In this document: piece after piece, positions 2,691 to 22,153 of the stretch
Position numbering within the stretch: position 1 is the first letter of the stretch
Layout of the letters: each line of letters opens with the position of its first letter
Source of the DNA: Candidatus Zhuqueibacterota bacterium
GTDB lineage: Bacteria > Zhuqueibacterota > Zhuqueibacteria > Oceanimicrobiales > Oceanimicrobiaceae
Assembly (NCBI GenBank): GCA_029261995.1
Contig: JAJDAF010000050.1
Location: 215,152 to 279,151, forward strand
Length of the DNA: 64,000 nt
Reading direction: 5' to 3'
Notes under the pieces: generated by a model
Databases searched by the model: none
What the model was told of the DNA's origin: nothing
The model's input: the letters and a program-made list of their open reading frames with translations, nothing else
Program-made: the position numbers and the translations under genes

Positions 2691-2823
2691 TCTGTAAGAC
2701 CCAACGGAACGACCGACTGGTTTTGCAGTTACCTTGCTTTGGCCTGCGGGATTGGCTGTAGCGGAAACGGTTGACACAATTTTGAGCTGCATAAGCAGTA
2801 AAGATGTTATAAAGGAGGCACGG

Positions 2824-4635
2824 ATGGAACGGAGATGGAGAACTCAATGGATGACAGCGTGCAGCGCCGCGCTTCTGCTAGCCGCAAGCCTGACGCCGCT
2901 AACAACCGTGGTTGCTCAAGGCAAACACCCCTACCCCAGAATTGGGACATTCCACTTCTTCCGCGGCCAGGTACCGCCTGATTGGCATGCCCGAATGGAC
3001 CTTGTGGATATCAACAAAACCGACCCGGATATTCCGCGGGCGATCAAACGAAAAAATCCAAAAACCGTGGTGTTTTCAACAAGCGGTTGGACGGTCTGGA
3101 ACAGCAATAATCCGATTTCTGACACGGATATCAGCTTTCCGTCCGAGTGGTTTGCTCGTCGTGCTGATGGCTCGCCAATCGAGTTCGCTGGTAAGAAATT
3201 TCTGATCAATCTTTCAAATCACTGCCCGAAAGTCGATGGCAAGCGCTACAATGAACTGCTGCCAGACGTGCTCATTGACCGCGTAGATCTAACCGCGTTT
3301 GACGGCATTGCCAGCGACTGGCTCTGGCGCAAGCCGCATAACCAAACCGACATCGATCTCGACAACAACGGCCGCAACGATTACGACGAACACGGCAACG
3401 CTTGGGTTGAAGCGGAGTGGCGTGCCGGCGTGGAAACTCTGCTGCAGATTCTGCGCGGCAAGATGCCGCCCAATCGTTACGTCCTCGTCAACTCCGGACT
3501 GTTCCACCAGTATGGTTGGAACACCACCAACGGCCTGATTCTCGAAAACTACCGTGGCGTGCGCGGTTGGAACGGTTTCGAACGCAATTACTTCGGCTGG
3601 AGCGATACTTCACTGGAGCCGCGCATGATGATTTTCGACGTCATGCCGTCGCCAAAGGACCCGCGTATCAATGGCGAGCCGAAGGATTACTACACACACA
3701 TGCGCTTCATGCTGACCATCACACTCTTGGGAGAGGGCTATTTCAGCTATTCTGATTTTGAGGCCAGGGCGCTGCACCATTTCGACAAGTACTACGATGA
3801 ATATGATGTCGAGCTTGGCTGGGACCGCACCGGGCCACAAAAGTTGACCAATGGCTGCTGGGTTCGATTTTTCGATAAAGGCGTCTCCATCACCAATCCA
3901 TCTACTTCGACGACCAGGGTCAGTGATGGCGACTTGCGTGGTTTAAACGGCTACAACGGGCCTTACTACCGTTTTCTTGGGGGTCAGGATTCGCAGGTTA
4001 ACAACGGCCAGCAGTTCGATGGCATCGAGCTTTTTGGTGGCAAATTGGACGACGGCCTGATTGTCGGGGATGGCATCATTTTGTTGACCGAGCGCAAAAC
4101 CGTCATCGCGGATATCGTGGTGGACCAGCAAAACGCCGAGACCTCGCCCGGAAGCAAAAATGCGGACCTGCAGGGCGGCTGGACGGAAACCAATGATGTT
4201 GAAGACCCCTACAGTTTTCGCCAGGCCAAACACAACGGCTTATTTGGCGTCGCCTTTGCCAGTCCTGGCAGTGGCGGCAGCAAGGCGATCTATACTCCTG
4301 AAATTGGCATCGCCGGGGAGTACGACGTTTATGAGTGGCATGGCAAGCTCGAGGGGTTCAATATGGCGACCAACGTGCCGGTCAAAATCACCATTAACGG
4401 AGATGTGAAATTTAACCAGCGCATCGACCAGTCGCGCCAGTCCGGAAGCTGGAACCATCTCGGCAAATTCAGTTTTCCGGTTGGCGCTCGTTCTCGCATC
4501 GAGCTTTCAAATGACGCCAACGGTATGGTGGTAGCGGATGCCTTCAAGCTGGTTTCCGTGACTTCAGAGCAACCCGACAGAGATGTGACGGCGCCCACAA
4601 CGCCTTCCGGAGTGCGTGTCTCGAATGGCAATTAG
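2824..4635 (+). CDS. secreted putative glycoside hydrolase (GHL15-like) with golvesin/Xly-like C-terminal beta domain
   Basis: AGGAGG RBS at about 2813 and a signal peptide (MERRWRTQWMTACSAALLLAASLTPLTTVVAQ). Motifs FDGIASD, NGLILEN, MRFMLTITLLGEGYF, YYDEYDVELG, WVRFFDKGVSITNP resemble the GHL15 family. C-terminal YTPEIGIAGEYDVYEW...IDQSRQSGSWNHLGKFSF...VVADAFKL is golvesin-like. Assigned from recalled motifs. Confidence 0.65.
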   Translation: MERRWRTQWMTACSAALLLAASLTPLTTVVAQGKHPYPRIGTFHFFRGQVPPDWHARMDLVDINKTDPDIPRAIKRKNPKTVVFSTSGWTVWNSNNPISDTDISFPSEWFARRADGSPIEFAGKKFLINLSNHCPKVDGKRYNELLPDVLIDRVDLTAFDGIASDWLWRKPHNQTDIDLDNNGRNDYDEHGNAWVEAEWRAGVETLLQILRGKMPPNRYVLVNSGLFHQYGWNTTNGLILENYRGVRGWNGFERNYFGWSDTSLEPRMMIFDVMPSPKDPRINGEPKDYYTHMRFMLTITLLGEGYFSYSDFEARALHHFDKYYDEYDVELGWDRTGPQKLTNGCWVRFFDKGVSITNPSTSTTRVSDGDLRGLNGYNGPYYRFLGGQDSQVNNGQQFDGIELFGGKLDDGLIVGDGIILLTERKTVIADIVVDQQNAETSPGSKNADLQGGWTETNDVEDPYSFRQAKHNGLFGVAFASPGSGGSKAIYTPEIGIAGEYDVYEWHGKLEGFNMATNVPVKITINGDVKFNQRIDQSRQSGSWNHLGKFSFPVGARSRIELSNDANGMVVADAFKLVSVTSEQPDRDVTAPTTPSGVRVSNGN

Positions 4636-4696: not shown

Positions 4697-6613
4697 ATGC
4701 AGCAAGATAATACAAGTTTTGGCGCCTGGGTGAAGGCATTTTCCCGCAGCGCACTGTGGGCTGGTGGAATTGTTGGCGGGCTGGAGGCTCTGATTGTCGT
4801 GTCTCGAATCCTCAGCAGCAATGCTGTCGAGCTGGCGCTGCTTCTGCAAATTGTGATTTTTGTAAGTTTCGCGATAGCGCTGTTTGCGGGGCTCTTGCTC
4901 ATCTTCAATCTCATCTTCCTGCCCGTGCTCTATTTGCCGCTGAAGATGGTTGTCTCTCGATTTCAGAAGATCGGGCCATCGCAATTGAGTTGGGTGCTCA
5001 ATTTTCTTACAGCGACCTTTTTCTGTTTCCTGTTCTGGGCACACTACAATTCCGGCCGCTCGCTGCTCTCTGGCAAATCACTGCTTTATTCGGGTTTGGC
5101 GTTTGTCGGTGCTTTGGTCCTGGCGGAAATCGCAGCCCGACTCATGCATGGAGCTTCTGACAAACTCAAGTTGTGGCGCAAAGGAAAGCCAAGACCTTTT
5201 GTGGTTGTCTGGCTTCTGGTTCTCGGCGTGGCGCTGTTCATGAACTCGAATGGCATGGCTGGCGTTAGAAGCGCCAAGCCGAATGTGCTCTTGCTTATCA
5301 TCGATACACTGCGGGCTGACCGGCTCGGTTGCTACGGCTATGACAAGCCCACCTCGCCATCCATCGACCGGGTGGCCAGTGAAAGCGTGCTTTTTGAACA
5401 AGCTTACGTGTCGTGGGCCTCGTCTTTGCCGTCGCATTCGTCCATCATGACCTCCATGCAGCCCTACCACCACGGCGCTTTTCCAAACGGGAAATCTCTG
5501 AACGCCAAGCTTTTGACGCTGCCGAAGATTCTGCACGAGTACGGGTATAAGAATGCGGGCTTTGTTTCGAATACACTGGTTGGCAATCAGTACAATTTTG
5601 AGCTTGGGTACGACACTTTCACCGACCTGACCAAGTTTGACTACCACGACACCAGTTGGCAAATGTGGGTACGCACACTCGATACGATTCGGTTGTTCGA
5701 CAAAATCACTGACCGTGATTTGTTCACCGATTTGGCGCTTTCGTGGATTGAAAAACATCGCCACCGACCCTTCTTTCTCTGGGGGCAATGGCTACAGCCG
5801 CATGCACCGTACGAGCCGCCGGCCAGGCATCTGGCCAAATTCGAAGAGAGTTATTCCGGAATCGCCGACGGTAGCCTCAAGCAGATTTTCGACATCCGGC
5901 AGGGTAACGTGACCTTGAGTGATTCCGACCAACAACACTATTCTGCGCTTTACGATGGCGAGGTTGCTTGGTCAGACGAGCAAATCGGCGCCGTGTATGA
6001 TAAGCTGACCGAACTCGAGTTGCTCGAGAACTCGATCGTCATTATTACTTCTGACCACGGCGAAAACATGTTGGAACACGGACTGGAATATGGCCACGCC
6101 GGGGTCAACGAATCGAGCGTGCGGATCCCTTTGCTCGTACGACTGCCGGGCGGTAAGCGGATGCAGTTGGCACACGTCGTGCAGAGCATCGACATCGCCC
6201 CGACTGTACTCGACCTTCTGGACATCCCCATGCCTGACCAGTTTCACGGCAGGAGCGTTGTCCCACTGGTCGAGGGGCAGAAGGTAGAGTGGCCGAACGA
6301 AGCGTTCAGTGTCGGGTTTTGGAAGAAGCGCAATTTTTTCGGTCTGCGCAATGGGGATTGGAAGCTGATTCTGGATGTGCGGCAGCAAAATCAGACCTGG
6401 GCGCTATACCATCTACCCACAGACCCGCACGAGCGAAAGAATCGTTACGAAACTGAGCCCGGGACGGCGACCAAGATGAAGCACGCCATGGAGATTTGGC
6501 TTGCGAACGAGTTTGAGAATCTCGATCTCGTATACAAGCCCGGCGGTTTTTTTGAAGAAGATTTTGATGAAAAGACAATTCAGCGGCTGCGAACGCTTGG
6601 ATACATCAAGTAA
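4697..6613 (+). CDS. membrane-anchored sulfatase-fold hydrolase/transferase
   Basis: About 5 N-terminal TM segments; NVLLLIIDTLRADRLGCYG, SSLPSHSSIMTS, PHAPYEPP, YDGEVAWSD, ITSDHGE, SIDIAPTVLD; ends RLRTLGYIK. Confidence 0.88.
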   Translation: MQQDNTSFGAWVKAFSRSALWAGGIVGGLEALIVVSRILSSNAVELALLLQIVIFVSFAIALFAGLLLIFNLIFLPVLYLPLKMVVSRFQKIGPSQLSWVLNFLTATFFCFLFWAHYNSGRSLLSGKSLLYSGLAFVGALVLAEIAARLMHGASDKLKLWRKGKPRPFVVVWLLVLGVALFMNSNGMAGVRSAKPNVLLLIIDTLRADRLGCYGYDKPTSPSIDRVASESVLFEQAYVSWASSLPSHSSIMTSMQPYHHGAFPNGKSLNAKLLTLPKILHEYGYKNAGFVSNTLVGNQYNFELGYDTFTDLTKFDYHDTSWQMWVRTLDTIRLFDKITDRDLFTDLALSWIEKHRHRPFFLWGQWLQPHAPYEPPARHLAKFEESYSGIADGSLKQIFDIRQGNVTLSDSDQQHYSALYDGEVAWSDEQIGAVYDKLTELELLENSIVIITSDHGENMLEHGLEYGHAGVNESSVRIPLLVRLPGGKRMQLAHVVQSIDIAPTVLDLLDIPMPDQFHGRSVVPLVEGQKVEWPNEAFSVGFWKKRNFFGLRNGDWKLILDVRQQNQTWALYHLPTDPHERKNRYETEPGTATKMKHAMEIWLANEFENLDLVYKPGGFFEEDFDEKTIQRLRTLGYIK

Positions 6614-8568: not shown

Positions 8569-10713
8569 ATGAAACGACCACTTTCATCTTTTCTGGGGAC
8601 AGCCACGCTGTTTGGCGTGTGCGCCGCGCTCAGCCTGTTCTTGTCAGAATGGATTCTTGGCTCCTTCTACGCTGCAATCAATTATCGCACATTTCTGTTC
8701 TACCTTGCCCTTTATCTGCCGGCCGGTGCGGTCGGCGGTGCAGTGCTTGGGCTGTTCTTGAAGCTCTTCTCAAGTGTGCTAAGCTCCCGCTGGATAGGCG
8801 TAAATCGTCCATCCTTCTTGCCGGCCGCGGTGATGTTTTCGTTTTTCTACATCTACGGTTTCTACTACATCAATGAAAAACTGACTGCCCGCGTTGGCGC
8901 ACTGGCTCCCTTGAGTCTCGCCGCGGATCTGGCGTTTCTGTTGCTGTCTTTCCTGGTATTTCGCCTGGTTGTGGCGCTACCTGAACGAAAAGGTAGCGCA
9001 GTCCTGGGCTTTCTTGAAGTCGGTTTCTTGCCGCTGATTCTTCTTGTTGGAGTCAATTTGCGCTTTTTTATCTGGCAGCCGCCGCACACCCAAATACCCG
9101 AATTGGTCTTTGGCACAATTGCGTTTGGCCTGGCGGGTCTGGCGGGCGCCGCTTTGGTCTGGCTTCATGCAAAGATCTTGACCGCTTCAGCATCCACGGG
9201 TGCGCGATTCGCCAGTGTTGCGGTAATGGCAGCAATTGTGTTTGCCATTCTTGTTTGGAGCGGCACGCCATCGACCGCCAGTTTCGACCGCACTGACGAT
9301 GAGTTTTTGGCGCAGGAAGCCGTGCAAAAGCCAAAGAACATCATCTGGATTGTCACCGACACGGCACGCCGTGACCATGTTTCGGTGTACGGCGGCCAGC
9401 GACAGACAACCCCGAGCCTTGAGCAATTTGCACAGGATGCCCTGGTTTTTGATAACGCCATCTCGGCGGCGCCCTGGACTCTGCCTTCGCACGCCTCAAT
9501 GTTCACGGGCATGTTTCCTTCGAAACACGGCGCACATTTTGTTGGTGACGCCATGTTCTCGACACCGCTGGTGCCGGGCAATCTGACGATCGGTGAAATC
9601 CTTTCGGCGCACGGCTACAACACCGCTGGCATCGCAGCGAACAATGCCGGATTGTCGCGACAGCTTGGATGCCATCAGGGATTTCAGTACTATTTTGATG
9701 GCCGCCCGCTTGTCTTCAGTATGTTCTGGGGCAAGGTGCTGCTCCAGCTTTCGGATGATTTTCGCATCGACGAGTTGTGGGTGAATGAGGTCTGCCTGGC
9801 AACAGAAATGGAACCCATCGTCAACAACTGGCTCGATGACAATGCTGATGACGGACCCTTCTTCCTGTTCGTGAATTTGATGGAGCCGCACGGCGGCATC
9901 GCCTTTGTGCCCGAGCCCTATGACTCCCTGTACGGCTTCGATCGCCAACGCCAGCAAGAGGTCTTCAAAGACTTCGATGCAGACAAAGTAGTGTTTTACC
10001 AGGCGGAGGTGACGGACGAGCACCGGGCATTTTGGAATGGCTACGTTCAGCGGAAGATTACTTTCATGGATGCCTATCTCGGCCGTCTGTTCGCCAGGTT
10101 AAAAGAGAAGGGACTCTATGATGACAGCATGGTCATCGTAAATTCCGACCACGGCGAGCTTTTTGGCGAACACAACTCATTCGGCCATAACACGGATTTG
10201 TACAATGAGTTGATTCGAGTGCCGTTGATGGTGAAGTACCCGCAGGCCGCCAAAACCGGCCGTGATGCAAAACTGGTGCAGACAGTTGACCTCATGCCGG
10301 AAATTCTGGCCCAGCTAGGCATCGAGATCCCCGCTAATGTTCAGGGCCAGCCGATTGACCAGGCGAACCATCCGGTGATTGCCGAGCTTTTTCAGCAACA
10401 ACACAATGCGCATGCCAAACGCAGTCCCGGCAGATACTACCGTGACCTGCGAGCGATCTTTGGCAACGTTGCGGGCGATTCACTGAAATACATCTGGGCT
10501 TCAAATGACAAGGCCGAACTCTTTGACATGGCAAACGACCCGGATGAGCTAACCGACGTTCTGCAGCAGAGGCCGCTGGCGGCTGACTCCCTGCGTGCGA
10601 GACTTGGCCGATGGGCCAGTAGCTTCAAACCGATGGAGACCAAGGGCCAGACTCGGAATATCGACAAGAAGGAATTGGAGAAGCGTTTGCGCTCACTGGG
10701 GTATATCAAGTAG
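8569..10713 (+). CDS. membrane-anchored sulfatase-fold hydrolase/transferase
   Basis: About 7 N-terminal TM segments; NIIWIVTDTARRDHVSVYG, APWTLPSHASMFTG, NLMEPHG, NSDHGELFGEH..FGH, TVDLMPEIL; ends RLRSLGYIK. Confidence 0.88.
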   Translation: MKRPLSSFLGTATLFGVCAALSLFLSEWILGSFYAAINYRTFLFYLALYLPAGAVGGAVLGLFLKLFSSVLSSRWIGVNRPSFLPAAVMFSFFYIYGFYYINEKLTARVGALAPLSLAADLAFLLLSFLVFRLVVALPERKGSAVLGFLEVGFLPLILLVGVNLRFFIWQPPHTQIPELVFGTIAFGLAGLAGAALVWLHAKILTASASTGARFASVAVMAAIVFAILVWSGTPSTASFDRTDDEFLAQEAVQKPKNIIWIVTDTARRDHVSVYGGQRQTTPSLEQFAQDALVFDNAISAAPWTLPSHASMFTGMFPSKHGAHFVGDAMFSTPLVPGNLTIGEILSAHGYNTAGIAANNAGLSRQLGCHQGFQYYFDGRPLVFSMFWGKVLLQLSDDFRIDELWVNEVCLATEMEPIVNNWLDDNADDGPFFLFVNLMEPHGGIAFVPEPYDSLYGFDRQRQQEVFKDFDADKVVFYQAEVTDEHRAFWNGYVQRKITFMDAYLGRLFARLKEKGLYDDSMVIVNSDHGELFGEHNSFGHNTDLYNELIRVPLMVKYPQAAKTGRDAKLVQTVDLMPEILAQLGIEIPANVQGQPIDQANHPVIAELFQQQHNAHAKRSPGRYYRDLRAIFGNVAGDSLKYIWASNDKAELFDMANDPDELTDVLQQRPLAADSLRARLGRWASSFKPMETKGQTRNIDKKELEKRLRSLGYIK

Positions 10714-13715: not shown

Positions 13716-13992
13716 GAACCTATAGGTGAATTTCCGCAGCGCGAAAACGGTATTGGTGCTGCCGAGACGTCCGTCCTGACGCTCTCATCAATACCCCATT
13801 GTTTCACAATGCAACACCAAAAGAAACTATCTGATCCCTTTTAAGACATCAAAGTTATGTGCCGATAACATTAACGCCGACGTGTCACTGTTTAGGTCTT
13901 AAAAAATAGCATGTTAACACGATATTGAGAATATTTGAAATGACTGTGAGTATCGGTATAGAATTTGCAAACGCAAGACGACTGTTTTCAGA

Positions 13993-16224
13993 ATGGCTCA
14001 ATTCAAAAAGGACGGTGAATCGTTGATCAATCCGGAGAGTAGAATTAGACTCAAGCTTGGAGTCATTGTACCCTTCTTCCTAGTCTTCCTGCTTATCCTC
14101 GGATCCCAGCCGGCGCATGCCTACATCGGACCTGGCGCAGGCTTTGCTTTTCTGACCTCGTTCCTGATGTTGTTTGCCAGTTTTTTCATGGCGTTTTTTA
14201 CCCTGCTGACCTGGCCCATGAGGGTGTTCGTTCGCTTCTTCAAACGCCGCAAAGCGTTCGTACAAGCCAAAACGGACCGCGTCGTCATTCTGGGCCTCGA
14301 CGGCCTTGAGCCGACGATTACGGAACGGTTGCTCAAGCAAGGCAAGTTGCCGAACCTGCTGAGGTTGAAGGAGCAGGGGTCCTATTCGCATTTGCAAACC
14401 ACCTATCCCGCGATTTCGCCAGTGGCATGGTCAGCGTTTTCGACAGGCGTGAATCCGGGCGGGCACAACATTTTTGATTTCCTGTCTCGACACAAGCAGA
14501 CCTACATGCCTGAGCTTTCCTCCTCCAAAGTCGGCACACCAAGCCGGAAGCTATCCTTTGGGCAATATGAGATTCCGCTGGGCAAACCGATTGTTCGTTT
14601 TCTGCGTCGCAGCAAGAGTTTCTGGAAAATCTTGGGCGACCACGGCATTTTTAGCCATGTCCTGCGGGTTCCGATTACATTTCCACCCGAGAAATTTAAC
14701 GGCGCCATGCTATCCGCCATGTGTGCGCCTGATTTGTGGGGAACTCAAGGCACCTTTTCTTTTTTCACCACCGACGATTCGGTGGACCCCATCAAGGAAG
14801 GCGGAGACACACAGATTGTGACACGCAACGGCGACCGCGTCGAAGGCAATATCAAGGGGCCTGAGAATTCCATTAAGAAGAATCACGGCCAGATGCTGCT
14901 GCCATTTGTGGCCAAAATTTTGGGTGAAGACGAAGCCGAGCTTATCATCGGCAAAGAGAGGATTCATCTCAAAAAGAAAAAATACACGGAGTGGATCGAG
15001 CTTAAATTCAAAGCAGGCTTGGGCATCAAAGTGCAGGGTATCGCGCGGTTTTACCTGCTCGACACCAAACCGCATTTCCGTCTTTACATGACGCCCATAA
15101 ATATCGATCCTGAGACGCCGGCGTTGCCGATTTCGTACCCCTATTTCTACTCGGTCTACCTGGCCAAGCTGCACGGCAAGTTTGCAACTCTCGGCCTGGC
15201 CGAAGACACCTGGTCGCTCAACGAAGGCATCCTGGACGAGCAGGCGTTTCTGGAGCAGGCTTATCTGATTCATGACGAACGCGAAAAGCAGTTTTTCCAC
15301 GCTCTTGATAAAACCAAGAAGGGCTTATGCGCGGTCGTTGTTGATGCGACGGACCGAATTCAGCACATGTTTTTCCGAACGCTGGAGGATGACCATCCGG
15401 CGAACAAGGGCAAAGAAACGGAGAAATACAAGAACGTCATCGAAGACATGTACATTAAGATGGACGGCCTGGTGGGCCGAACCATGGAAAAAGTCAACAA
15501 AGACGACCTCTTTATCGTGCTCTCCGACCACGGCTTCAAGTCTTTCAAACGCGGCATCAATCTGAACGTTTGGCTGAAGGAGAATGGCTATCTCACCCTC
15601 AAAGATGGGGTTGAAAAAACAGGCGAGTTTTTTCAGGGCGTAGACTGGTCGAAAACAAAGGCCTACGCTTTTGGGCTTGCGGGTATCTACCTGAATGTGA
15701 AGGGCCGGGAGAAGCACGGCACTGTCGAACCAGGTGATGAGTACCAGAAGCTCAAGAGAGAGCTGATTGAGAAGCTTTCCGGCTTGATAGACCCGAAAAA
15801 CGGTAATGTCGCGATCACCGAAATGTATGATGGTCAAAAAATTTACAGCGGTCCCTACGTTAATGACGGCCCAGATTTGATCAGTGGTTACAACATCGGT
15901 TACCGCATCTCGTGGAACGGAGCCACCGGCGTTATTGATGACACTCTTTTTGATGACAACACGAAAGCCTGGAGTGGCGACCACTGCATCGATCCCAAGC
16001 TGGTTCCGGGTGTGATTTTCAGCAATATGAAAATAGCCGCGGCAAAGCCGGGACTTGTCGACTTGGCGCCAACGGTTCTGGATATGTTTGGAGTCGCCAA
16101 GCCGGGTTACATGACGGGGGCAAACATCTTTGAGACGACGCGTAGTGGCGTAAACGGGCGTGCTCACAAGATCGGCAAAGTCGAAACGGTTGAGATTACG
16201 GAGGTCGCGAACCCCAATGAGTAG
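13993..16224 (+). CDS. alkaline phosphatase superfamily protein (type I phosphodiesterase/nucleotide pyrophosphatase-like), membrane anchored
   Basis: VVILGLDG, PAISPVAWSAFSTGVNPGGHNIFDF, DRIQHMFF, VLSDHGF, WSGDHC, VDLAPTVL. N-terminus: signal-like segment ..PAHA|YIGPGAG followed by a TM helix and a basic stretch. Confidence 0.85.
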   Translation: MAQFKKDGESLINPESRIRLKLGVIVPFFLVFLLILGSQPAHAYIGPGAGFAFLTSFLMLFASFFMAFFTLLTWPMRVFVRFFKRRKAFVQAKTDRVVILGLDGLEPTITERLLKQGKLPNLLRLKEQGSYSHLQTTYPAISPVAWSAFSTGVNPGGHNIFDFLSRHKQTYMPELSSSKVGTPSRKLSFGQYEIPLGKPIVRFLRRSKSFWKILGDHGIFSHVLRVPITFPPEKFNGAMLSAMCAPDLWGTQGTFSFFTTDDSVDPIKEGGDTQIVTRNGDRVEGNIKGPENSIKKNHGQMLLPFVAKILGEDEAELIIGKERIHLKKKKYTEWIELKFKAGLGIKVQGIARFYLLDTKPHFRLYMTPINIDPETPALPISYPYFYSVYLAKLHGKFATLGLAEDTWSLNEGILDEQAFLEQAYLIHDEREKQFFHALDKTKKGLCAVVVDATDRIQHMFFRTLEDDHPANKGKETEKYKNVIEDMYIKMDGLVGRTMEKVNKDDLFIVLSDHGFKSFKRGINLNVWLKENGYLTLKDGVEKTGEFFQGVDWSKTKAYAFGLAGIYLNVKGREKHGTVEPGDEYQKLKRELIEKLSGLIDPKNGNVAITEMYDGQKIYSGPYVNDGPDLISGYNIGYRISWNGATGVIDDTLFDDNTKAWSGDHCIDPKLVPGVIFSNMKIAAAKPGLVDLAPTVLDMFGVAKPGYMTGANIFETTRSGVNGRAHKIGKVETVEITEVANPNE

Positions 16225-18199
16225 AATGTTACAATCTATTGCAGGCACGAGTTGCCTGCTCGTAAGCCTGTGTTTGCTTGCTGCGAGTTTCACTGGTTGC
16301 GACAAGACACGTGCGGATGCGCCACAAAAAAAAGTCATTGTGATAGGATTTGATGGCGCTGATCCCGACCTTTTAAATCAGTACATGAAAGAGGGCAGGC
16401 TGCCCAATTTTTCAAGGTTTGCACAGACCGGTGACTATATGCCGCTCGGGACCAGTGTACCGCCGCAAAGTCCCGTGGCGTGGTCGAATTTTATCACCGG
16501 CATGAATCCGGGCGGGCACGGCATCTACGACTTCATTCACCGTGACCCTGAGTTGATGACGCCGATTTCTTCCACCTCGAAGACCGAAGGTTCATCGAAC
16601 ACGCTCAAGATCGGCAAATGGTTGATCCCACTATCCAGTGGCCATGTCAAGAATTTGAGGCAGGGCGAGGCTTTCTGGACCATGCTGGAAGATAGGGGCA
16701 TCTCTACCACGGTCATCAAAGTACCGGCGAATTTCCCGCCTATTGAATCGGATGGCAAGACCTTGAGCGGCATGGGCACGCCTGATTTGCTCGGCAGTTT
16801 CGGGACGTTTTCCTTCTACACCGACGATCCGCCAGCCAACCGGGACGATATCTCCGGGGGCACGATTTATCCGGTAACTCTGGTCAACAACAGCTTTGAG
16901 TCAAATCTTGTGGGGCCCAAAAACGCTTTACTCGAAGGCGAGCCGGACGCAACCATTCCGTTCAAAGTCTACCGGGACGCTGAGAATGCGACTGCCAGAA
17001 TTGATGTGCAGGGCAAGCAGATTCTGCTGCAGGAGAAAGAGTGGAGCGACTGGCTTCAGGTCAACTTTGACCTCCTGCCCGCCGGTTTGACGGGTGTGAG
17101 CGGCATCTGCCGTTTCTACCTGAAAGAAGTTCGTCCCAAGGTGAAATTGTACGTCACGCCGATCAATATTGACCCATCGGCGCCTGCGCTGCCGGTCTCA
17201 ACACCGGAAGACTACGTTGAGGACCTGCACAAGTGTTGTGGCAATTTTTATACGCAGGGCATGCCCGAAGACACCAAAGCGCTCTCCTGGGGTGTGTTTG
17301 ACCACGATGATTTTCACAGCCAAAGTAAGAATGTTCTCGAAGAGCGGCTGCGCATGTTCAATCATGTCTACGACAACTATGAAGACGGCTTGCTCTTCTT
17401 CTACTTCTCCAGCACGGATCTCAACGCCCACATGTTTTACAATATGATCGATCCCGAGCATCCGGGCTACAAGCCCGAGTTGGCGGCGAAATATCATGAC
17501 GTGATTGCATCGGTCTATGAAGGCGTGGATGCAGTAGTCGGGCGTGTGCTTGACACAATCGACGATGAAACGACCGTGATGGTAATGTCAGACCATGGTT
17601 TTGCTCCTTTCCGAAGGGCCGTGCATCTCAATACCTGGTTGCTGCAGGAGGGCTATGTCTCTCTGCTTGACGAAACAAAGCAGGAGGAGTCAGACTATTT
17701 TTTGAACGTAGACTGGGGCAAGAGTCAGGTTTATGGCCTCGGTTTTAACGGGCTTTACGTCAATTTGCTTGGCCGTGAGAAATACGGCATCGTCAAATAC
17801 AGCGAGAAAGGCAAGCTCATTGATGAGATCGCCGACAAGTTGCTAGATCTGCGCGACCCGAAGAATGGCGAGAAAATTGTCGATAGAGTCTACCGCGCTA
17901 GCGAGATCTATTCCGGTGTCAACCTGCGCGGGGCCCCCGATCTTGTGATTGGTTATAAACGGGGTTACCGTGCATCCGACAAGACGGTGTTAGGCAGCTT
18001 TCCGAGGGAATGGATCGCTGACAACATGGATTCCTGGAGCGGTGACCACTGCATGGCGGCTGAGTTGGTTCCAGGAATCATTCTGTCAAACAAGAAGATC
18101 GTAGCCGAGAATCCGAAGCTGTATGATCTTGCCCCGACGATTTTATCAGAATTTGGGGTAGGTAAGAACGCAGATATGGTAGGGGAGTCCATCTTTTGA
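16217..18199 (+). CDS. alkaline phosphatase superfamily protein (NPP-like), probable lipoprotein; paralog of 13993-16224
   Basis: ATG 16217 overlaps the upstream stop by 8 nt; lipobox-like LAASFTG|C; VIVIGFDG, PPQSPVAWSNFITGMNPGGHGIYDF, MSDHGF, WSGDHC, YDLAPTIL. Confidence 0.85.
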   Translation: MSRMLQSIAGTSCLLVSLCLLAASFTGCDKTRADAPQKKVIVIGFDGADPDLLNQYMKEGRLPNFSRFAQTGDYMPLGTSVPPQSPVAWSNFITGMNPGGHGIYDFIHRDPELMTPISSTSKTEGSSNTLKIGKWLIPLSSGHVKNLRQGEAFWTMLEDRGISTTVIKVPANFPPIESDGKTLSGMGTPDLLGSFGTFSFYTDDPPANRDDISGGTIYPVTLVNNSFESNLVGPKNALLEGEPDATIPFKVYRDAENATARIDVQGKQILLQEKEWSDWLQVNFDLLPAGLTGVSGICRFYLKEVRPKVKLYVTPINIDPSAPALPVSTPEDYVEDLHKCCGNFYTQGMPEDTKALSWGVFDHDDFHSQSKNVLEERLRMFNHVYDNYEDGLLFFYFSSTDLNAHMFYNMIDPEHPGYKPELAAKYHDVIASVYEGVDAVVGRVLDTIDDETTVMVMSDHGFAPFRRAVHLNTWLLQEGYVSLLDETKQEESDYFLNVDWGKSQVYGLGFNGLYVNLLGREKYGIVKYSEKGKLIDEIADKLLDLRDPKNGEKIVDRVYRASEIYSGVNLRGAPDLVIGYKRGYRASDKTVLGSFPREWIADNMDSWSGDHCMAAELVPGIILSNKKIVAENPKLYDLAPTILSEFGVGKNADMVGESIF

Positions 18200-18320
18200 G
18201 GCGCTATTCGCAGGTCAGGGCATCTCAGGGTGGCTGAAGAAGAACATTGAGCTTGTGGAATTATTCATCGAGCTAGTGCAAATAGAACAAACCAGGGTTA
18301 GTCGATAAAGGAGTAAATTG

Positions 18321-18506
18321 ATGGCAAAGGTAAAACTTGAGAACGAACTATTTGACCGCGTCAAGAAATTTGCGGAGGTGGCTGGCTATTCGTCGGCTGA
18401 GGAGTTCATCGCTCACATTCTGGAGAAGGAGCTTTCATCGGTAGACGAAACAGATAGCGACGATGAGATCAAAAAGCGTTTGCAGGGTCTCGGTTATTTG
18501 TCCTAG
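18321..18506 (+). CDS. 61-aa hypothetical protein, CopG/ribbon-helix-helix-like N-terminus plus RLxxLGY C-terminal motif
   Basis: AAGGAG RBS at 18308-18313. Sequence MAKVKLENELFDRVKKFAEVAGYSSAEEFIAHILEKEL...DDEIKKRLQGLGYLS. Confidence 0.8.
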   Translation: MAKVKLENELFDRVKKFAEVAGYSSAEEFIAHILEKELSSVDETDSDDEIKKRLQGLGYLS

Positions 18507-18541: not shown

Positions 18542-19363
18542 ATGGATCTCATAAACGCAGCACTAAATACAGTTTTTGGGCTAGTCTTTTTGCCCTTCAG
18601 AAACGCAAGCCCGGTTTGGCCCATGCTTGTGATCTCCGTGGTCACGGGTGTGGCGATGCTGGTCATTTTCAAGGCGACCTCCGACCAGAACGCGATCAAA
18701 AGGGCGAAGAATTTGGTCAAAGGCCATTTCCTTGCGATCCGCCTGTACAAAGACGATATCGGGTTGATGGTAGACACGATGAAGAACATCATCGTGAGCA
18801 ATCTGCTTTATATGAAACAGTCGCTGCGTCCCATGCTGTTTTTGCTGGTTCCGGTTGGAATCATTCTGATTCAGCTTGGCGTGCGGTACGAATTCCGGCC
18901 TCTGAAGGTTGGCGAGGCCGTTGTCGTGTCTCTTCGTGTTGAAGATGCGGCTGTCGAGCTTGCGGATGTCCGCCTTGATTTGCCGGAAGGCTTGGAGTTG
19001 AATATCCCCCCTGTACGCGTGGAGCAACTTCGGGAAATCAACTGGCGGCTCAAAGCAACCCAATCGGGTGTTTTCAACCTGGCGTTCAAACACGGCGACC
19101 ATGTGGTTGACAAGCGCCTGCAGGTTGTCGATGCCCTCGCGCCTGTGACAGCTCAGGTAGCAAAACATGATATCGGTGTGACCATCATGAACCCGGCCGA
19201 ATCCAGCCTTGGAGAGGCATCGTTTGCCTCACTGGTGTCCATCTCATACCCGGTGCGGGATTTCGAACTCTGGGGTTTCAGCCTGCACTGGCTGGTGGCT
19301 TTTTTTGTCATCAGCTTGATTGCCGCTTTCGGATTTAAGGGCATGTTGGGCGTTGAAGTTTAG
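18542..19363 (+). CDS. DUF106/EMC3/TMCO1-like (Oxa1 superfamily-like) membrane protein with soluble insertion
   Basis: TM1 (MLVISVVTGVAMLVIFK)-ATSDQ, helical linker, MKQSLRPMLFLLVP-TM2, about 130-aa beta-rich insert, TM3 (LHWLVAFFVISLIAAFGFKGMLGV). Pattern recalled from archaeal DUF106; not searched. Confidence 0.6.
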   Translation: MDLINAALNTVFGLVFLPFRNASPVWPMLVISVVTGVAMLVIFKATSDQNAIKRAKNLVKGHFLAIRLYKDDIGLMVDTMKNIIVSNLLYMKQSLRPMLFLLVPVGIILIQLGVRYEFRPLKVGEAVVVSLRVEDAAVELADVRLDLPEGLELNIPPVRVEQLREINWRLKATQSGVFNLAFKHGDHVVDKRLQVVDALAPVTAQVAKHDIGVTIMNPAESSLGEASFASLVSISYPVRDFELWGFSLHWLVAFFVISLIAAFGFKGMLGVEV

Positions 19364-20348: not shown

Positions 20349-21512
20349 ATGAATCTAATTGCGCCACACGGTGGCCAACTTGTCAATCGAGTTTTAAAAG
20401 GTGATGAACGTGATGCTGCCCTGGAAAGAAGCAAGGGCTTACGGAAACTGCAACTGGGCCCTACTTCGGTTTCTGATCTCGAGTTGATTTCTGTCGGCGC
20501 GTGTAGTCCGCTGACAGGCTTTATGAAGAAGGCTGATTACGAGAGTGTCGTCGATAATATCAGACTTGCAAATGGCATGGTCTGGTCGATTCCGATTACC
20601 TTGGCCGTCTCCAGGACCGTGGCAGACGAGTTGAAGGAGGGCGACGAGCTTCTGCTGACCAATGACGCCGACTACCCGCTTGCGATTATGACCCTGGAGG
20701 AAAAATACACTTACGACAAGAATCGAGAGGCCGAGCAAGTCTATCGCACTACTGACGAAGCTCATCCGGGAGTGGCAAGAGCGCTTCGGCAAGGCGAGAT
20801 TCTATTGGGTGGGGATATCCAGCTAATCAACCATTTGCCTGATTTACCGTTTCCGGATTTCCGCCATGAGCCTGCCGCAACTCGCAAAGCCTTCGCGGAG
20901 CGGGGCTGGACAACTATCGTGGCATTTCAAACCCGGAACCCGATTCATCGGGCGCATGAGTATCTGACCAAAGTCGCTCTTGAAGGCGTCGATGGCCTTC
21001 TGATTCACCCCCTCGTCGGCGAGACGAAATCGGATGACGTGCCGGCGGCAGTGCGCATGGAATGCTATAAAATGATGATGAAAAACTACTACAATCCGAA
21101 GCGAGTTATGCTGAGTGTGTTCCCGGCTGCCATGCGTTATGCCGGCCCGCGTGAAGCCATTTTTCACGCCATGCTGCGAAAAAACTATGGCTGTAGCCAT
21201 CTCATCGTTGGCCGGGACCATGCGGGTGTTGGTGACTACTACGGAACTTACGATGCCCAAGAGATTTTCGACCAGTTCACGGCTGATGAACTAGGCATCG
21301 TCCCGATGAAATTCGAGCACTCATTCTACTGCAAATTAACGAAACAGATGGCGACGGAAAAAACAAGCCCGAGTACGGGTCCGGAACATCGTGTTTTTCT
21401 GAGCGGTACGAAGGTGCGCGAAATGCTGACGCGCGGCGAGATGCCGCCGGAACAGTTTACGCGGCCCGAAATAGCACAGGTGCTGATCGATAGTTACAAG
21501 AAGAACGCGTAA
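20349..21512 (+). CDS. sat: sulfate adenylyltransferase (ATP sulfurylase)
   Basis: PHGGQLVNR, SPLTGFM, WSIPITL, FQTRNPIHRAHEYL, MRYAGPREA, VGRDHAGVG, LSGTKVREML. Confidence 0.97.
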   Translation: MNLIAPHGGQLVNRVLKGDERDAALERSKGLRKLQLGPTSVSDLELISVGACSPLTGFMKKADYESVVDNIRLANGMVWSIPITLAVSRTVADELKEGDELLLTNDADYPLAIMTLEEKYTYDKNREAEQVYRTTDEAHPGVARALRQGEILLGGDIQLINHLPDLPFPDFRHEPAATRKAFAERGWTTIVAFQTRNPIHRAHEYLTKVALEGVDGLLIHPLVGETKSDDVPAAVRMECYKMMMKNYYNPKRVMLSVFPAAMRYAGPREAIFHAMLRKNYGCSHLIVGRDHAGVGDYYGTYDAQEIFDQFTADELGIVPMKFEHSFYCKLTKQMATEKTSPSTGPEHRVFLSGTKVREMLTRGEMPPEQFTRPEIAQVLIDSYKKNA

Positions 21513-21571
21513 CAGAAAACAGAAAAGAAAAATGAATTCAAATTCTACCCAGAACAGGAGGTAATAGTTAG

Positions 21572-22153
21572 ATGTCCGAATCATTGAAAGCAGCGACGAT
21601 CTGGTTTACAGGACTTCCATCTTCCGGCAAGTCAACCTTGGCGGTTTTGTTGGAAAACGAACTAAAAAAACGCGGGCGCACGGTTGAAGTTCTCGACGGT
21701 GACGTTGTAAGAACGAATCTGAGCAAAGGCCTGGGCTTCAGCAAGGAAGATCGCGACACCAATATCAAACGAATTGGCTTTGTCTGCCACTTGCTGTCAC
21801 GTAATGGCACCTTTGCCGTATCCGCAGCCATCTCACCCTACAAAGAAATTCGTGACGATGTCCGCGACATGATTGGCGATTTCGTCGAGATCTTTGTCGA
21901 TTGCCCGCTCGACGAGTGCATAAAGCGCGACGTCAAAGGTCTCTACAAGAAAGCCATAGCTGGCGAAATTCAGGGCTTTACCGGCATCTCTGACCCTTAT
22001 GAGCCACCAACCGATGCTGAACTCATCGTCAAGACCGGTGAAGAAGAGCCGCAGGAAAGCCTACGGAAGATTCTCGCGAGGCTCGAGGAGTTGGGCTATC
22101 TGGCAAAGAATGGCGTGGCCGAGACTTCTGAAGCCGAAATGGCATCCGCCTGA
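21572..22153 (+). CDS. cysC: adenylyl-sulfate kinase
   Basis: AGGAGGT RBS; [13 protein letters not shown]-loop, [41 protein letters not shown]. Confidence 0.97.

Follow-up and report, generated by a model that had tools for sequence, protein, structure and literature searches.

The small gene at positions 18321-18506 of the DNA stretch analysed here (64,000 nucleotides, hereafter the window) is a real gene, and its 61-residue product is a member of a large, unnamed and highly conserved protein family. Members of this family combine an N-terminal half that is, judging by structural modelling, a ribbon-helix-helix (RHH) fold with a short C-terminal tail built around the motif LGY. The gene is part of a cassette with three core products, namely NPP1 (an NPP-like enzyme of the AP superfamily), the small protein and a membrane protein resembling EMC3/TMCO1; most loci add a second NPP-like enzyme, NPP2. 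The interpretation that we tentatively prefer, while giving it not quite an even chance, is that the small protein is a cytoplasmic subunit or regulator of the cassette and docks through its tail. The relevant features of the window are as follows.

13993-16224, + strand: NPP1, NPP-like AP-superfamily enzyme (Pfam Phosphodiest), ending ...VANPNE, without an LGY tail.
16217-18199, + strand: NPP2, the exported paralogue (Pfam Phosphodiest), with the lipobox FTGC, ending ...MVGESIF, without an LGY tail in the window.
18321-18506, + strand: the small gene, 61 codons plus stop, encoding an RHH-like N-terminal half and an LGY tail.
18321-18440, + strand: RHH-like domain of the small protein (residues 1-40), comprising a beta-strand (KVKLE), helix 1, the AGYSS turn and helix 2 (EEFIAHILEKE).
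18456-18503, + strand: LGY tail of the small protein (residues 46-61, SDDEIKKRLQGLGYLS), predicted to form a short helix with a cap and, at the very C-terminus, GY plus a hydrophobic residue.
18542-19363, + strand: EMC3/TMCO1-like membrane protein with three transmembrane (TM) segments and a beta-rich insert of ~130 residues, directly 3' of the small gene.

The small open reading frame (coordinates including the stop codon) encodes the protein MAKVKLENELFDRVKKFAEVAGYSSAEEFIAHILEKELSSVDETDSDDEIKKRLQGLGYLS, which ends in KKRLQGLGYLS, and its ATG is preceded at a distance of 7 nt by the Shine-Dalgarno sequence AAAGGAG (18307-18313). Its homologues fall into 402 clusters (401 representatives at 50% clustering) and come from more than 540 species genomes, spread over KSB1, Calditrichota, Acidobacteriota (including Aminicenantes), Gemmatimonadota, Zixibacteria, Eisenbacteria, Myxococcota, Methylomirabilota and other groups. 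Two motifs, AGYSS..EF..H.LEKE and L.GLGY, are invariant in the family. The mean net charge in the family is ~0 for the RHH part and ~-2 for the whole protein, and a signal peptide is absent. A PDB sequence search with the small protein found no solved relative.

The fold of the N-terminal half was examined in an AlphaFold model of an orthologue 66% identical to the window protein. The model shows two confident helices (residues 11-24 and 29-45, pLDDT 91-94); the N-terminal strand is unformed, as expected for a monomer model because the partner chain is missing. When searched with Foldseek, it superimposes on the RHH domains of NikR, MazE9, VapB, ParD, FitA and Arc at 0.9-1.6 A over 36-48 residues, with E-values that are non-significant for so short a query; the best match is the RHH domain of NikR (rmsd 0.9-1.6 A, 42-48 residues, 25-26% identity). 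The small protein displays the arrangement typical of the RHH superfamily, i.e. a beta-strand, two helices and a G-x-S/T turn between them. The turn is here an invariant A-G-Y-S-S, polar and hydrophobic residues alternate along the strand, and the family alignment shows K3 and K5 on the strand to be nearly invariant and G22, Y23, S24, S25, E28, F29, H32 and E35 to be invariant. The window protein itself (P0001) matches no Pfam family at E <= 0.01, does not reach any curated RHH threshold and has a weak match to the NCBIfam NikR model (E 0.056). Among 26 relatives, RHH_1 (PF01402) is matched by eight (best E 3.5e-4) and DUF7557 by 19, with none reported above the curated cutoff (P0001: 14.9 bits vs 25); FitA-like and TacA matches in family members are likewise sub-threshold. 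Together with the Foldseek result, these matches bear out the RHH-like N-terminus that an initial annotation of the same DNA had proposed. By analogy with other RHH proteins, this half should dimerise, so presenting two tails, and may bind DNA.

The tail is also conserved in the family. Residues L54, G56, L57, G58 and Y59 are invariant in the family alignment, with S46 and E49 nearly so, and LG[YFW] occurs within the last eight residues in 245 of 270 homologues, the rest of which look truncated or frameshifted; the loss of LGY that the initial annotation had named as an argument against its own reading was not seen. In the isolated model of the orthologue the tail is predicted as a helix (pLDDT 83), and because this helix is fairly confident without any partner, it may pack on the protein's own RHH domain.

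Around the small gene, the order NPP1, NPP2 (in most loci), small gene, EMC3/TMCO1-like gene is strikingly constant. Upstream of the small gene, the end of an NPP gene is less than 400 nt away in 65 of the 67 loci with sufficient flank; where the sequence 3' of it extends to 1 kb or more (78 loci), the next gene is always the EMC3-like one. The co-occurrence of tail-less AP-superfamily genes with the small gene, which had been put forward as something to look for, is therefore borne out. The genes are tightly packed, with a median gap of 16 nt upstream and 21 nt downstream of the small gene and start/stop overlaps in four and ten loci, respectively; the spacer between NPP2 and the small gene was not found to be conserved among the four closest relatives. 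NPP2 is absent from ~16 loci (none within 8 kb), which retain the three other genes. In one lineage the genes for NPP1 and the small protein are fused into one open reading frame (P0226, in the two independent assemblies L087 and L088), again followed by the membrane protein. Other apparent fusions (P0132 etc.) look like frameshifted or read-through gene calls and were rejected, so P0226 alone is counted. We also considered and rejected a toxin-antitoxin module with an RHH antitoxin: no toxin family was seen, the neighbours being the NPP-like enzyme (65/67) and the EMC3-like protein (78/78). In all 61 loci compared from outside the clade of the window, the small protein is the best conserved of the cassette products (64% identity vs 50, 46 and 32% for the others), which fits a protein with several simultaneous contacts.

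The other members of the cassette can be placed with respect to the membrane by prediction. NPP1, whose fold is nearest to those of Xac NPP, ENPP and PhnA, starts with a membrane hairpin (a signal-like segment, YIGPGAG, a TM segment, WPxR and a basic stretch) kept in 63 of 63 homologues, none of which was found to carry an LGY tail. Since a basic stretch follows the hairpin, a Sulfotransfer_3-NPP1 fusion (P0388) places both hairpin flanks in the cytoplasm, and the small protein is signal-less, the catalytic domain of NPP1 is predicted to be cytoplasmic and to share its compartment with the small protein. NPP2, which likely starts at the ATG at 16217, overlapping the NPP1 stop, is interpreted as exported because its homologues carry Tat (RRxFLK) signals or lipoboxes; the window protein has the lipoprotein type of signal, not Tat. 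The membrane protein, as read from its sequence, may have the EMC3-like layout of TM1, a cytosolic helical hairpin, TM2 and TM3. PF01956 (EMC3_TMCO1) gives matches below the gathering score, the best with E 9.8e-5, in 18 of 45 family members, and none for the window protein. A fusion, L051, favours a C-in orientation, and the N-terminus is predicted to be periplasmic.

The LGY motif recurs elsewhere in the window far more often than chance would allow. A six-frame translation of the entire window contains the pattern L..LGY[LIVM] five times, as against 0.09 times expected when the residues of long open reading frames were shuffled (2000 shuffles, mean 0.09, maximum 2). All five copies lie in real + strand genes and four of them exactly one residue ahead of the stop. 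Apart from the small protein, the carriers are three sulfatase-fold proteins and the APS kinase CysC.

2643-2687, + strand: LGY tail TEEQKKRLRALGYLK (RLRALGYLK) of the sulfatase-fold protein encoded at 696-2690.
6566-6610, + strand: LGY tail DEKTIQRLRTLGYIK (RLRTLGYIK) of the sulfatase-fold protein encoded at 4697-6613.
10666-10710, + strand: LGY tail KKELEKRLRSLGYIK (RLRSLGYIK) of the sulfatase-fold protein encoded at 8569-10713.
22079-22102, + strand: LGY-type helix RLEELGYL of CysC, after the kinase domain and 16 residues from the C-terminus.

The C-termini quoted in the initial annotation are exact, and the tail is indeed present on the three sulfatase-fold proteins and the small protein and missing from the two NPP-like proteins. 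It is, however, neither confined to the AP superfamily nor an element of that superfamily which the NPP-like proteins have lost: cytoplasmic APS kinases and a DUF2061 protein terminate in it as well. Of 36 other homologues of the 8569-10713 protein, 34 have a variable linker and then the terminal sequence L[RK].LGY[ILV][KQ], and the remaining two stop short of it; in a PDB search, alignments of solved sulfatases with the window's sulfatase-fold proteins are limited to the catalytic domain and leave the tail uncovered. The APS_kinase domain of the window's CysC ends at residue 154 of 193, and cassette-adjacent CysC proteins of other phyla also have the LGY element, six of them with a second, terminal tail. 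LGY-tailed APS kinases, the DUF2061 protein and sulfatase-like enzymes are encoded beside such cassettes and PAPS-synthesis genes. The linker ahead of the tail is acidic or variable in all carriers, and the small protein conforms to the general pattern, i.e. an acidic or variable linker and then [KR]..L..LGY[ILVM], one to four residues from the C-terminus. The distribution of the tail is that of a portable terminal module. The tails of the sulfatase-fold proteins are predicted to be periplasmic and that of the small protein cytoplasmic; because the carriers are thus found in the periplasm (sulfatase-like) as well as the cytoplasm (CysC and the RHH protein), one receptor cannot serve all LGY tails. 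As a side observation, nearby tail-bearing sulfatase-like genes were seen at five cassette loci with NPP2 and at none of the ~16 loci without it, numbers too few to interpret.

How might the small protein work? Under the docking interpretation, the RHH half would dimerise and present two tails, and the C-terminal 16 residues, a short capped helix ending GLGY-hydrophobic-x, would act as a docking peptide. Through the tail, the RHH dimer would be anchored to another cassette product on the cytoplasmic side, either the catalytic domain of NPP1 or, in the EMC3-like protein, the helical hairpin in the cytosol. This would make the small protein a stoichiometric subunit, an adaptor or a regulator, which might compete with CysC and other tail carriers. 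Dimerisation, docking, the identity of the partner and the regulatory effect are all points that we infer. It is possible that the tail is supplied in trans to NPP1, as the initial annotation envisaged for the NPP-like enzymes; bridging of the two paralogues, another of its suggestions, is unlikely, considering that NPP2 is exported, the small protein is signal-less and ~16 loci lack NPP2. Co-folding with NPP1, modelled with AlphaFold2 as a single-chain read-through fusion (read-through NPP2-small fusions serving as paired rows of the alignment), gave no sign of docking, with a tail pLDDT of 73-79 compared to 83 for the small protein alone, although a test based on pLDDT only is weak both ways. 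A much more speculative extension, which we consider improbable, is that the tail constitutes a two-compartment docking code, with the tail-less NPP paralogues acting as its receptors, one on either side of the inner membrane. In the cytoplasm, NPP1 would bring in the PAPS-making APS kinase and the RHH protein, the latter perhaps as a bivalent adaptor or a competitive regulator; after export, NPP2 would gather the periplasmic sulfatase-like enzymes that bear the tail. With the EMC3-like protein as an insertase or lipid scramblase, all of these would make up an undescribed trans-membrane machine that transfers activated sulfate or phospho groups to lipids or glycans of the envelope.

The same small protein could instead be an ordinary RHH repressor of the cassette operon, with its beta-ribbon on the operator, its tail serving self-association (cooperative dimers of dimers, as in Mnt/Arc-type proteins) or effector sensing, and the likeness to the enzyme tails reflecting a common helix-cap design. 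We regard this as rather unlikely, though several observations fit it. All neighbours in the fold comparison are RHH domains that bind DNA (NikR, MazE9, VapB, ParD, FitA, AtaR and Arc), a kinship echoed by the sub-threshold RHH_1, FitA and TacA matches in Pfam; the G-Y-S-S turn and the nearly invariant strand residues K3 and K5 are equally expected of a plain DNA-binding repressor; and the helix of the tail is modelled with fair confidence in the protein alone (pLDDT 83). Upstream of NPP1 there is a promoter-like site (13935-13964), as well as an inverted repeat, TTTTAAGAC-N38-GTCTTAAAA (13839-13904), partly kept in three relatives. On the other hand, an operator common across phyla was not found, in a search confounded by differing upstream genes. 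The gene is third in the operon, packed tightly between enzyme and membrane genes, and conservation across phyla above that of the enzymes (the 61 of 61 loci mentioned above) would be unusual for an operon-specific repressor. The net charge of ~0 (RHH part) and ~-2 (whole protein) is low for a DNA binder, and the natural fusion to membrane-anchored NPP1 would keep the RHH protein at the membrane. A set of 8-mers enriched upstream of NPP1 in 58 loci was also considered as an operator and discarded, as it proved to be coding sequence of a conserved Aminicenantes upstream gene.

Three further explanations concern mainly the tail or the neighbourhood of NPP2. The tail may be an intrinsic structural element of each carrier, i.e. 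a helix C-cap acting in cis or across a homo-oligomer, with no common partner and only convergent likeness. Helix ends of the LxxLGY type do occur in unrelated proteins (the family profile matches the C-terminus of eukaryotic ribosomal protein uL13, ...QLAALGYMS, in the PDB), the exact form is fixed within each family but differs between them (GLGY[LI]S for the small protein, [SA]LGY[IL]K for sulfatase-like proteins), and the isolated model contains a fairly confident third helix. This nevertheless seems improbable in view of the five copies in one 64-kb window, the recurrence of the tail on differing families specifically around the cassette and sat/cysC in several phyla, a likeness spanning ~14 residues including the N-cap and acidic stretch, and the combination of a variable linker and invariant tail that typifies tethered peptides. 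A slightly poorer prospect is an amphipathic membrane-targeting helix, like the C-termini of MinD or FtsA and usable on either membrane face. It would suit the short terminal helix with its basic residues, the hydrophobic face formed by I50, L54, L57, Y59 and L60, the flexible acidic linker before it, and the presence in both compartments of carriers that all plausibly act at the membrane. However, the invariance of L.GLGY / RL..LGY is far stricter than the loose amphipathicity needed, the helix has only a short hydrophobic face, its Gly-Tyr cap points to a conformation that is fixed and packed, and the sulfatase-like proteins and DUF2061 are already membrane-anchored. That the small protein is an export escort, binding folded Tat/Sec-exported NPP2 before export as TorD/DmsD-type chaperones do, seems highly improbable: many NPP2 homologues bear twin-arginine signals and the small gene directly follows NPP2 in most loci, but ~16 loci keep it with no NPP2 within 8 kb, the natural fusion partner is NPP1, not NPP2, and the signal of the window NPP2 is of the lipoprotein type.

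Our literature searches found nothing on the LGY tail or on the cassette. The cassette, with its four uncharacterised proteins, is carried by hundreds of species in poorly studied phyla and appears to be undescribed. If the tail is a docking peptide, the 16-residue peptide could serve as bait for its partner, and such an experiment would show the organisation of PAPS synthesis, of the AP-superfamily enzymes on either membrane face and of a bacterial EMC3-like protein. Docking would also make the tail a rare bacterial case of one short terminal peptide common to a regulator-type protein and pathway enzymes. Should the small protein be a plain repressor, it would define the regulator of a widespread operon.

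Among known systems, RHH type II antitoxins (ParD, RelB, CcdA, FitA and the N-domains of MazE9/VapB) resemble the small protein in being small and acidic, with an N-terminal RHH domain and a flexible linker, and their C-terminal peptide folds on a partner encoded alongside. They are among its nearest fold matches and give weak Pfam matches as well. In contrast to them, the small gene has no toxin gene, is third in a four-gene cassette and encodes a tail common to metabolic enzymes, and its product is ~64% conserved across phyla whereas antitoxins evolve fast. Transcription factors of the NikR/CopG/Arc/MetJ type share the RHH fold, the G-x-S/T turn and the strand alternation; unlike NikR, the small protein lacks a metal-binding ACT-like domain and has the LGY tail and a fixed synteny to membrane enzymes, its RHH matches being sub-threshold. 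That a tail can act in trans on an enzyme of the AP fold has a precedent in the oligomerisation tails of the AP superfamily: in the choline sulfatase of S. meliloti and in RlPMH, C-terminal helical tails cross to another protomer and reach the entrance of its active site, and truncation lowers activity (PMC5870055). Those tails are ~60 residues long, family-specific and covalently part of the enzyme, and show no sequence likeness to the LGY tail, which is carried by non-AP proteins and by an RHH protein that, the natural NPP1-small fusion aside, is a polypeptide of its own. The small protein may finally be compared with carriers of portable docking peptides, such as the C-terminus of CysE, which inserts into CysK, the cargo-loading peptides of encapsulins, the encapsulation peptides of microcompartments and the C-terminal tail of SSB. 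While the LGY tail differs from these in occurring on both sides of the membrane, and the cassette in having no shell or CysK-like partner, the likeness lies in a short conserved terminal peptide that follows a variable linker and is borne by several unrelated proteins of one pathway.

The small protein is encoded within a compact cassette, behind a strong Shine-Dalgarno sequence (AAAGGAG, 7 nt 5' of the gene), and ends in the peptide L..LGY[LIVM], here called the LGY tail.

13993-16224, + strand: NPP1, a membrane-anchored NPP-like protein
up to 18199, + strand: NPP2, its NPP-like paralog
18321-18506, + strand: small gene, 61 residues, translation MAKVKLENELFDRVKKFAEVAGYSSAEEFIAHILEKELSSVDETDSDDEIKKRLQGLGYLS
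18542-19363, + strand: membrane protein (EMC3-like)

The initial annotation described the tail as shared by the small protein and the three sulfatase-fold proteins (ORFs 696-2690, 4697-6613 and 8569-10713) and as missing from the two NPP-like proteins. This pattern is borne out: the sulfatase-fold ORFs end in ...KKRLRALGYLK, ...IQRLRTLGYIK and ...EKRLRSLGYIK, the NPP-like ones in ...VANPNE and ...MVGESIF. Six-frame translation of the 64-kb window yields five matches to the pattern, against a mean of 0.09 expected by chance from shuffled long-ORF residues; all five fall within real + strand genes, four of them one residue before the stop and the fifth (RLEELGYL) towards the C-terminal end of the APS kinase (CysC).

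It is firm that the small gene encodes a conserved RHH protein whose terminal peptide is invariant. Relatives form 402 clusters in a word-indexed search and 401 representatives at 50% clustering in an exhaustive HMMER search, and they occur in at least 540 genomes scanned at one per species, from KSB1 (a MAG of which provides the top match, with 85% identity), Calditrichota, Acidobacteriota (Aminicenantes, Holophagae, Thermoanaerobaculia), Gemmatimonadota, Zixibacteria, Eisenbacteria, Myxococcota, Methylomirabilota and Verrucomicrobia. Invariant positions lie in the first half (G22, Y23, S24, S25, E28, F29, H32, E35) and in the tail (L54, G56, L57, G58, Y59), and the nearly invariant S46 and E49 resemble an N-cap for the tail helix. 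LG[YFW] occurs within the last eight residues of 245 of the 270 relatives, and those without it appear truncated or frameshifted; the loss of LGY in homologs, which the initial annotation had named as evidence against its reading, is therefore not observed. When the window's own clade is set aside, the small protein ranks first in conservation among the four cassette proteins at 61 of 61 loci, with a mean identity of 64% versus 50, 46 and 32% for the other three.

The window protein has no Pfam match and matches NikR weakly in NCBIfam; among 26 relatives, the Pfam families DUF7557 and RHH_1 are matched by 19 and eight, respectively, below threshold, and FitA-like RHH and TacA by single members. 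An ortholog with 66% identity, modelled in AlphaFold2 from an alignment of 57 sequences (mean pLDDT 85.5), has helices at 11-24, 29-45 and 50-60. Foldseek matches this model exclusively to RHH DNA-binding domains, led by NikR (0.9-1.6 A over 42-48 residues) and then MazE9, VapB, ParD, FitA, AtaR and Arc; with a query this short, the E-values do not reach significance. We accept an RHH fold; such a domain would dimerise and may bind DNA.

Gene context, drawn from two look-ups and 80 species loci, follows one fixed order, and the obligatory linkage of the small protein to a cytoplasm-facing NPP1 and an EMC3-like membrane protein is likewise firm. Of the 67 loci with enough flank, 65 have the end of an NPP-like gene less than 400 nt before the small gene, and a membrane protein of ~275 aa is encoded next downstream in 78/78; the intergenic gaps have medians of 16 and 21 nt, and stop/start pairs overlap four times upstream and ten times downstream. 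The commonest order is NPP1-NPP2-small-membrane protein. NPP2 is not found within 8 kb at some 16 loci, which have NPP1-small-membrane protein only and belong to Holophagae, Thermoanaerobaculia, Methylomirabilota and one MAG labelled Chondromyces; this leaves NPP1, the small protein and the membrane protein as the invariant core of the cassette. That NPP1 and the small protein are naturally fused in some genomes is certain: in two independent assemblies of one lineage (L087/L088 4001-6454) the two form a single 817-aa ORF, followed by the membrane protein gene as elsewhere, and the junction looks like the old intergenic spacer minus its stop codon. A more distant cassette encodes two RHH domains in tandem, with one terminal tail.

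Some further features of these loci deserve mention. In Aminicenantes (L004 2486-3781 and other loci) a third, shorter Phosphodiest-family gene (431 aa) lies directly 5' of NPP1, giving a five-gene cassette, and a protein of 1292 aa (P0348) resembles an NPP1-NPP2 fusion. Before NPP1 in the window, upstream of a promoter-like site (13935-13964), lies an inverted repeat, TTTTAAGAC-N38-GTCTTAAAA (13839-13904), both arms of which can be made out in the three nearest relatives (L006-L008); this repeat may be a regulatory site.

All 63 NPP1 homologs begin with a signal-like hydrophobic segment, Y[IV]GPGAG, a TM helix, WPxR and a strongly basic stretch, immediately after which comes the catalytic GxDG; this module (window 13993-14280) also occurs in 106 of 120 database relatives. 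Because a protein with 19 member sequences (P0388) has a PAPS-type sulfotransferase domain (Pfam Sulfotransfer_3) fused ahead of the NPP1 hairpin, both flanks of the hairpin, including the catalytic domain (model pLDDT ~96; nearest folds Xanthomonas NPP, ENPPs and PhnA), are predicted to be cytoplasmic. NPP2 is predicted to be exported on account of the twin-arginine (RRxFLK) or lipoprotein signals of its homologs, the window copy having a lipobox, FTGC, after the probable start ATG 16217. The sulfatase-fold proteins have 5-7 TM segments, and the positive-inside rule places their catalytic domains and tails putatively in the periplasm; a soluble relative bears a lipoprotein-like signal. In a Polyangia MAG (L051 8178-10940) the EMC3-like protein continues through a very basic loop and an extra TM into a sulfatase-like domain ending ...SDEELSELKALGYIGD, which physically links the cassette to a tail-bearing exported enzyme. 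With no signal peptide in the cytoplasmic small protein, and with periplasmic tails on the sulfatase-fold proteins, the LGY tail would thus be present on both sides of the membrane. The bridging of the two NPP paralogs proposed in the initial annotation is contradicted by this topology and by the loci without NPP2, and we consider it unlikely.

A terminal-motif scan of all ORFs in the fetched loci found the tail on APS kinases that carry a 50-residue extension (...LELMGYIPPSDSEAEYTPEEEEKIKERLKALGYL), on a DUF2061 membrane protein adjoining sat/cysC (L024 3890-4372, ...DDLEIIRSQLKSLGYL; Pfam E 3.8e-12), and on further sulfatase-like proteins and the membrane protein-sulfatase fusion, with family assignments confirmed by Pfam. 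That the peptide is common to the small protein, PAPS-synthesis enzymes and exported sulfatase-like enzymes near such cassettes is firm. Judged by its carriers, the tail is a portable module and not an AP-superfamily feature, which undercuts the premise that an element of that superfamily was missing from the NPP proteins. Among the 36 further homologs found for the 8569 protein, 34 terminate in L[RK].LGY[ILV][KQ], preceded by a non-conserved linker, and two end short of the motif. NPP1 lacks the tail in all 63 homologs; a degenerate version occurs in some Gemmatimonadota-type NPP2 sequences only, so NPP2 is not always tail-less (such ends read ...KERLESVGYASGKD and ...NLEALGYVAGSK in L001 5819-7951 and at the C-terminus of P0348).

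A sulfotransferase gene or domain is linked to NPP1. In 12 of 83 loci, spread over several phyla, sat and/or cysC are found no further than 8 kb from the cassette (20349-22153 in the window). For single-copy genes this is far above chance, and it suggests PAPS or APS as the cassette's substrate or context. In each of the 12 cassette-near CysC copies the kinase domain is followed by an L..[LMAE]GY-type helix, and six of them end in a second tail. In such tandem-LGY kinases (L024 3444-4055; L041 1694-2386; L042 2518-3165; L039 1751-2383; L023 (-) 2747-3364; L009 5131-5811) the first element lies directly past the kinase domain and the second at the C-terminal end, past an acidic linker; the window CysC (21572-22153) has the first only.

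Docking on NPP1 was probed with a model of a single chain from L046, where NPP1 and the small gene share a frame: NPP1 catalytic domain, WGGRG and small protein, with TGA read as Trp (table 4) and an alignment of 56 NPP1 rows and 14 read-through NPP2-small rows.

pLDDT in the NPP1-small fusion model and in the small protein alone
NPP1 domain: fusion ~96; alone, not applicable
Linker: fusion <50; alone, not applicable
RHH helices: fusion 82-87; alone 91-94
Tail helix: fusion 73-79; alone 83
Last residues: fusion 44 (last two); alone 71 (last four)

The tail gains no pLDDT beside NPP1 in this weak test (one chain, short tether, monomeric RHH, pLDDT only), so the model lends no support to NPP1 docking. 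A second candidate receptor is the cytosolic hairpin of the EMC3-like protein. The window copy has no Pfam match, and 18 of 45 family members match EMC3_TMCO1 (PF01956, DUF106; best E 9.8e-5) below threshold. TM1 is followed by a basic, helical cytosolic segment (~55 residues), TM2, an insert rich in beta structure (~130 residues), and TM3 with a C-in end; this layout appears to fit the Oxa1 superfamily, the insert lying outside. The protein would be a bacterial Oxa1-superfamily member of archaeal/eukaryotic type, always encoded with NPP1 and its unusual N-terminal hairpin.

We tentatively favour the small protein as a subunit, adaptor or regulator of the cassette, whose tail would tether the RHH dimer to a cytoplasm-facing partner. 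The earlier idea that the small protein supplies its tail in trans survives in part: co-occurrence, tail retention and the fusion fit it, but bridging and the AP-superfamily premise do not hold up. An ordinary autoregulatory RHH repressor, using its tail for self-association, would suit the fold and is a less likely but serious alternative, and not mutually exclusive with the subunit or adaptor role. We think it improbable that the tail is a purely structural cis element, convergent between the families that carry it, and slightly less likely still that it is an amphipathic membrane-binding helix; a role as export escort of NPP2, a protein not found at some 16 loci, seems very improbable indeed.

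The searchable literature yielded no description of the LGY tail, the small family or the cassette; the tail is well founded as an observation, and its mechanism is still a proposal. RHH antitoxins have the same architecture of an RHH plus a partner-binding tail, but, unlike them, the small protein is encoded in a cassette without a toxin gene. In choline sulfatase and phosphonate monoester hydrolases, C-terminal tails unrelated in sequence to the LGY tail attach to a second AP-fold protomer and shape the entrance to its active site (PMC5870055), which provides a mechanistic precedent for tails that act in trans.
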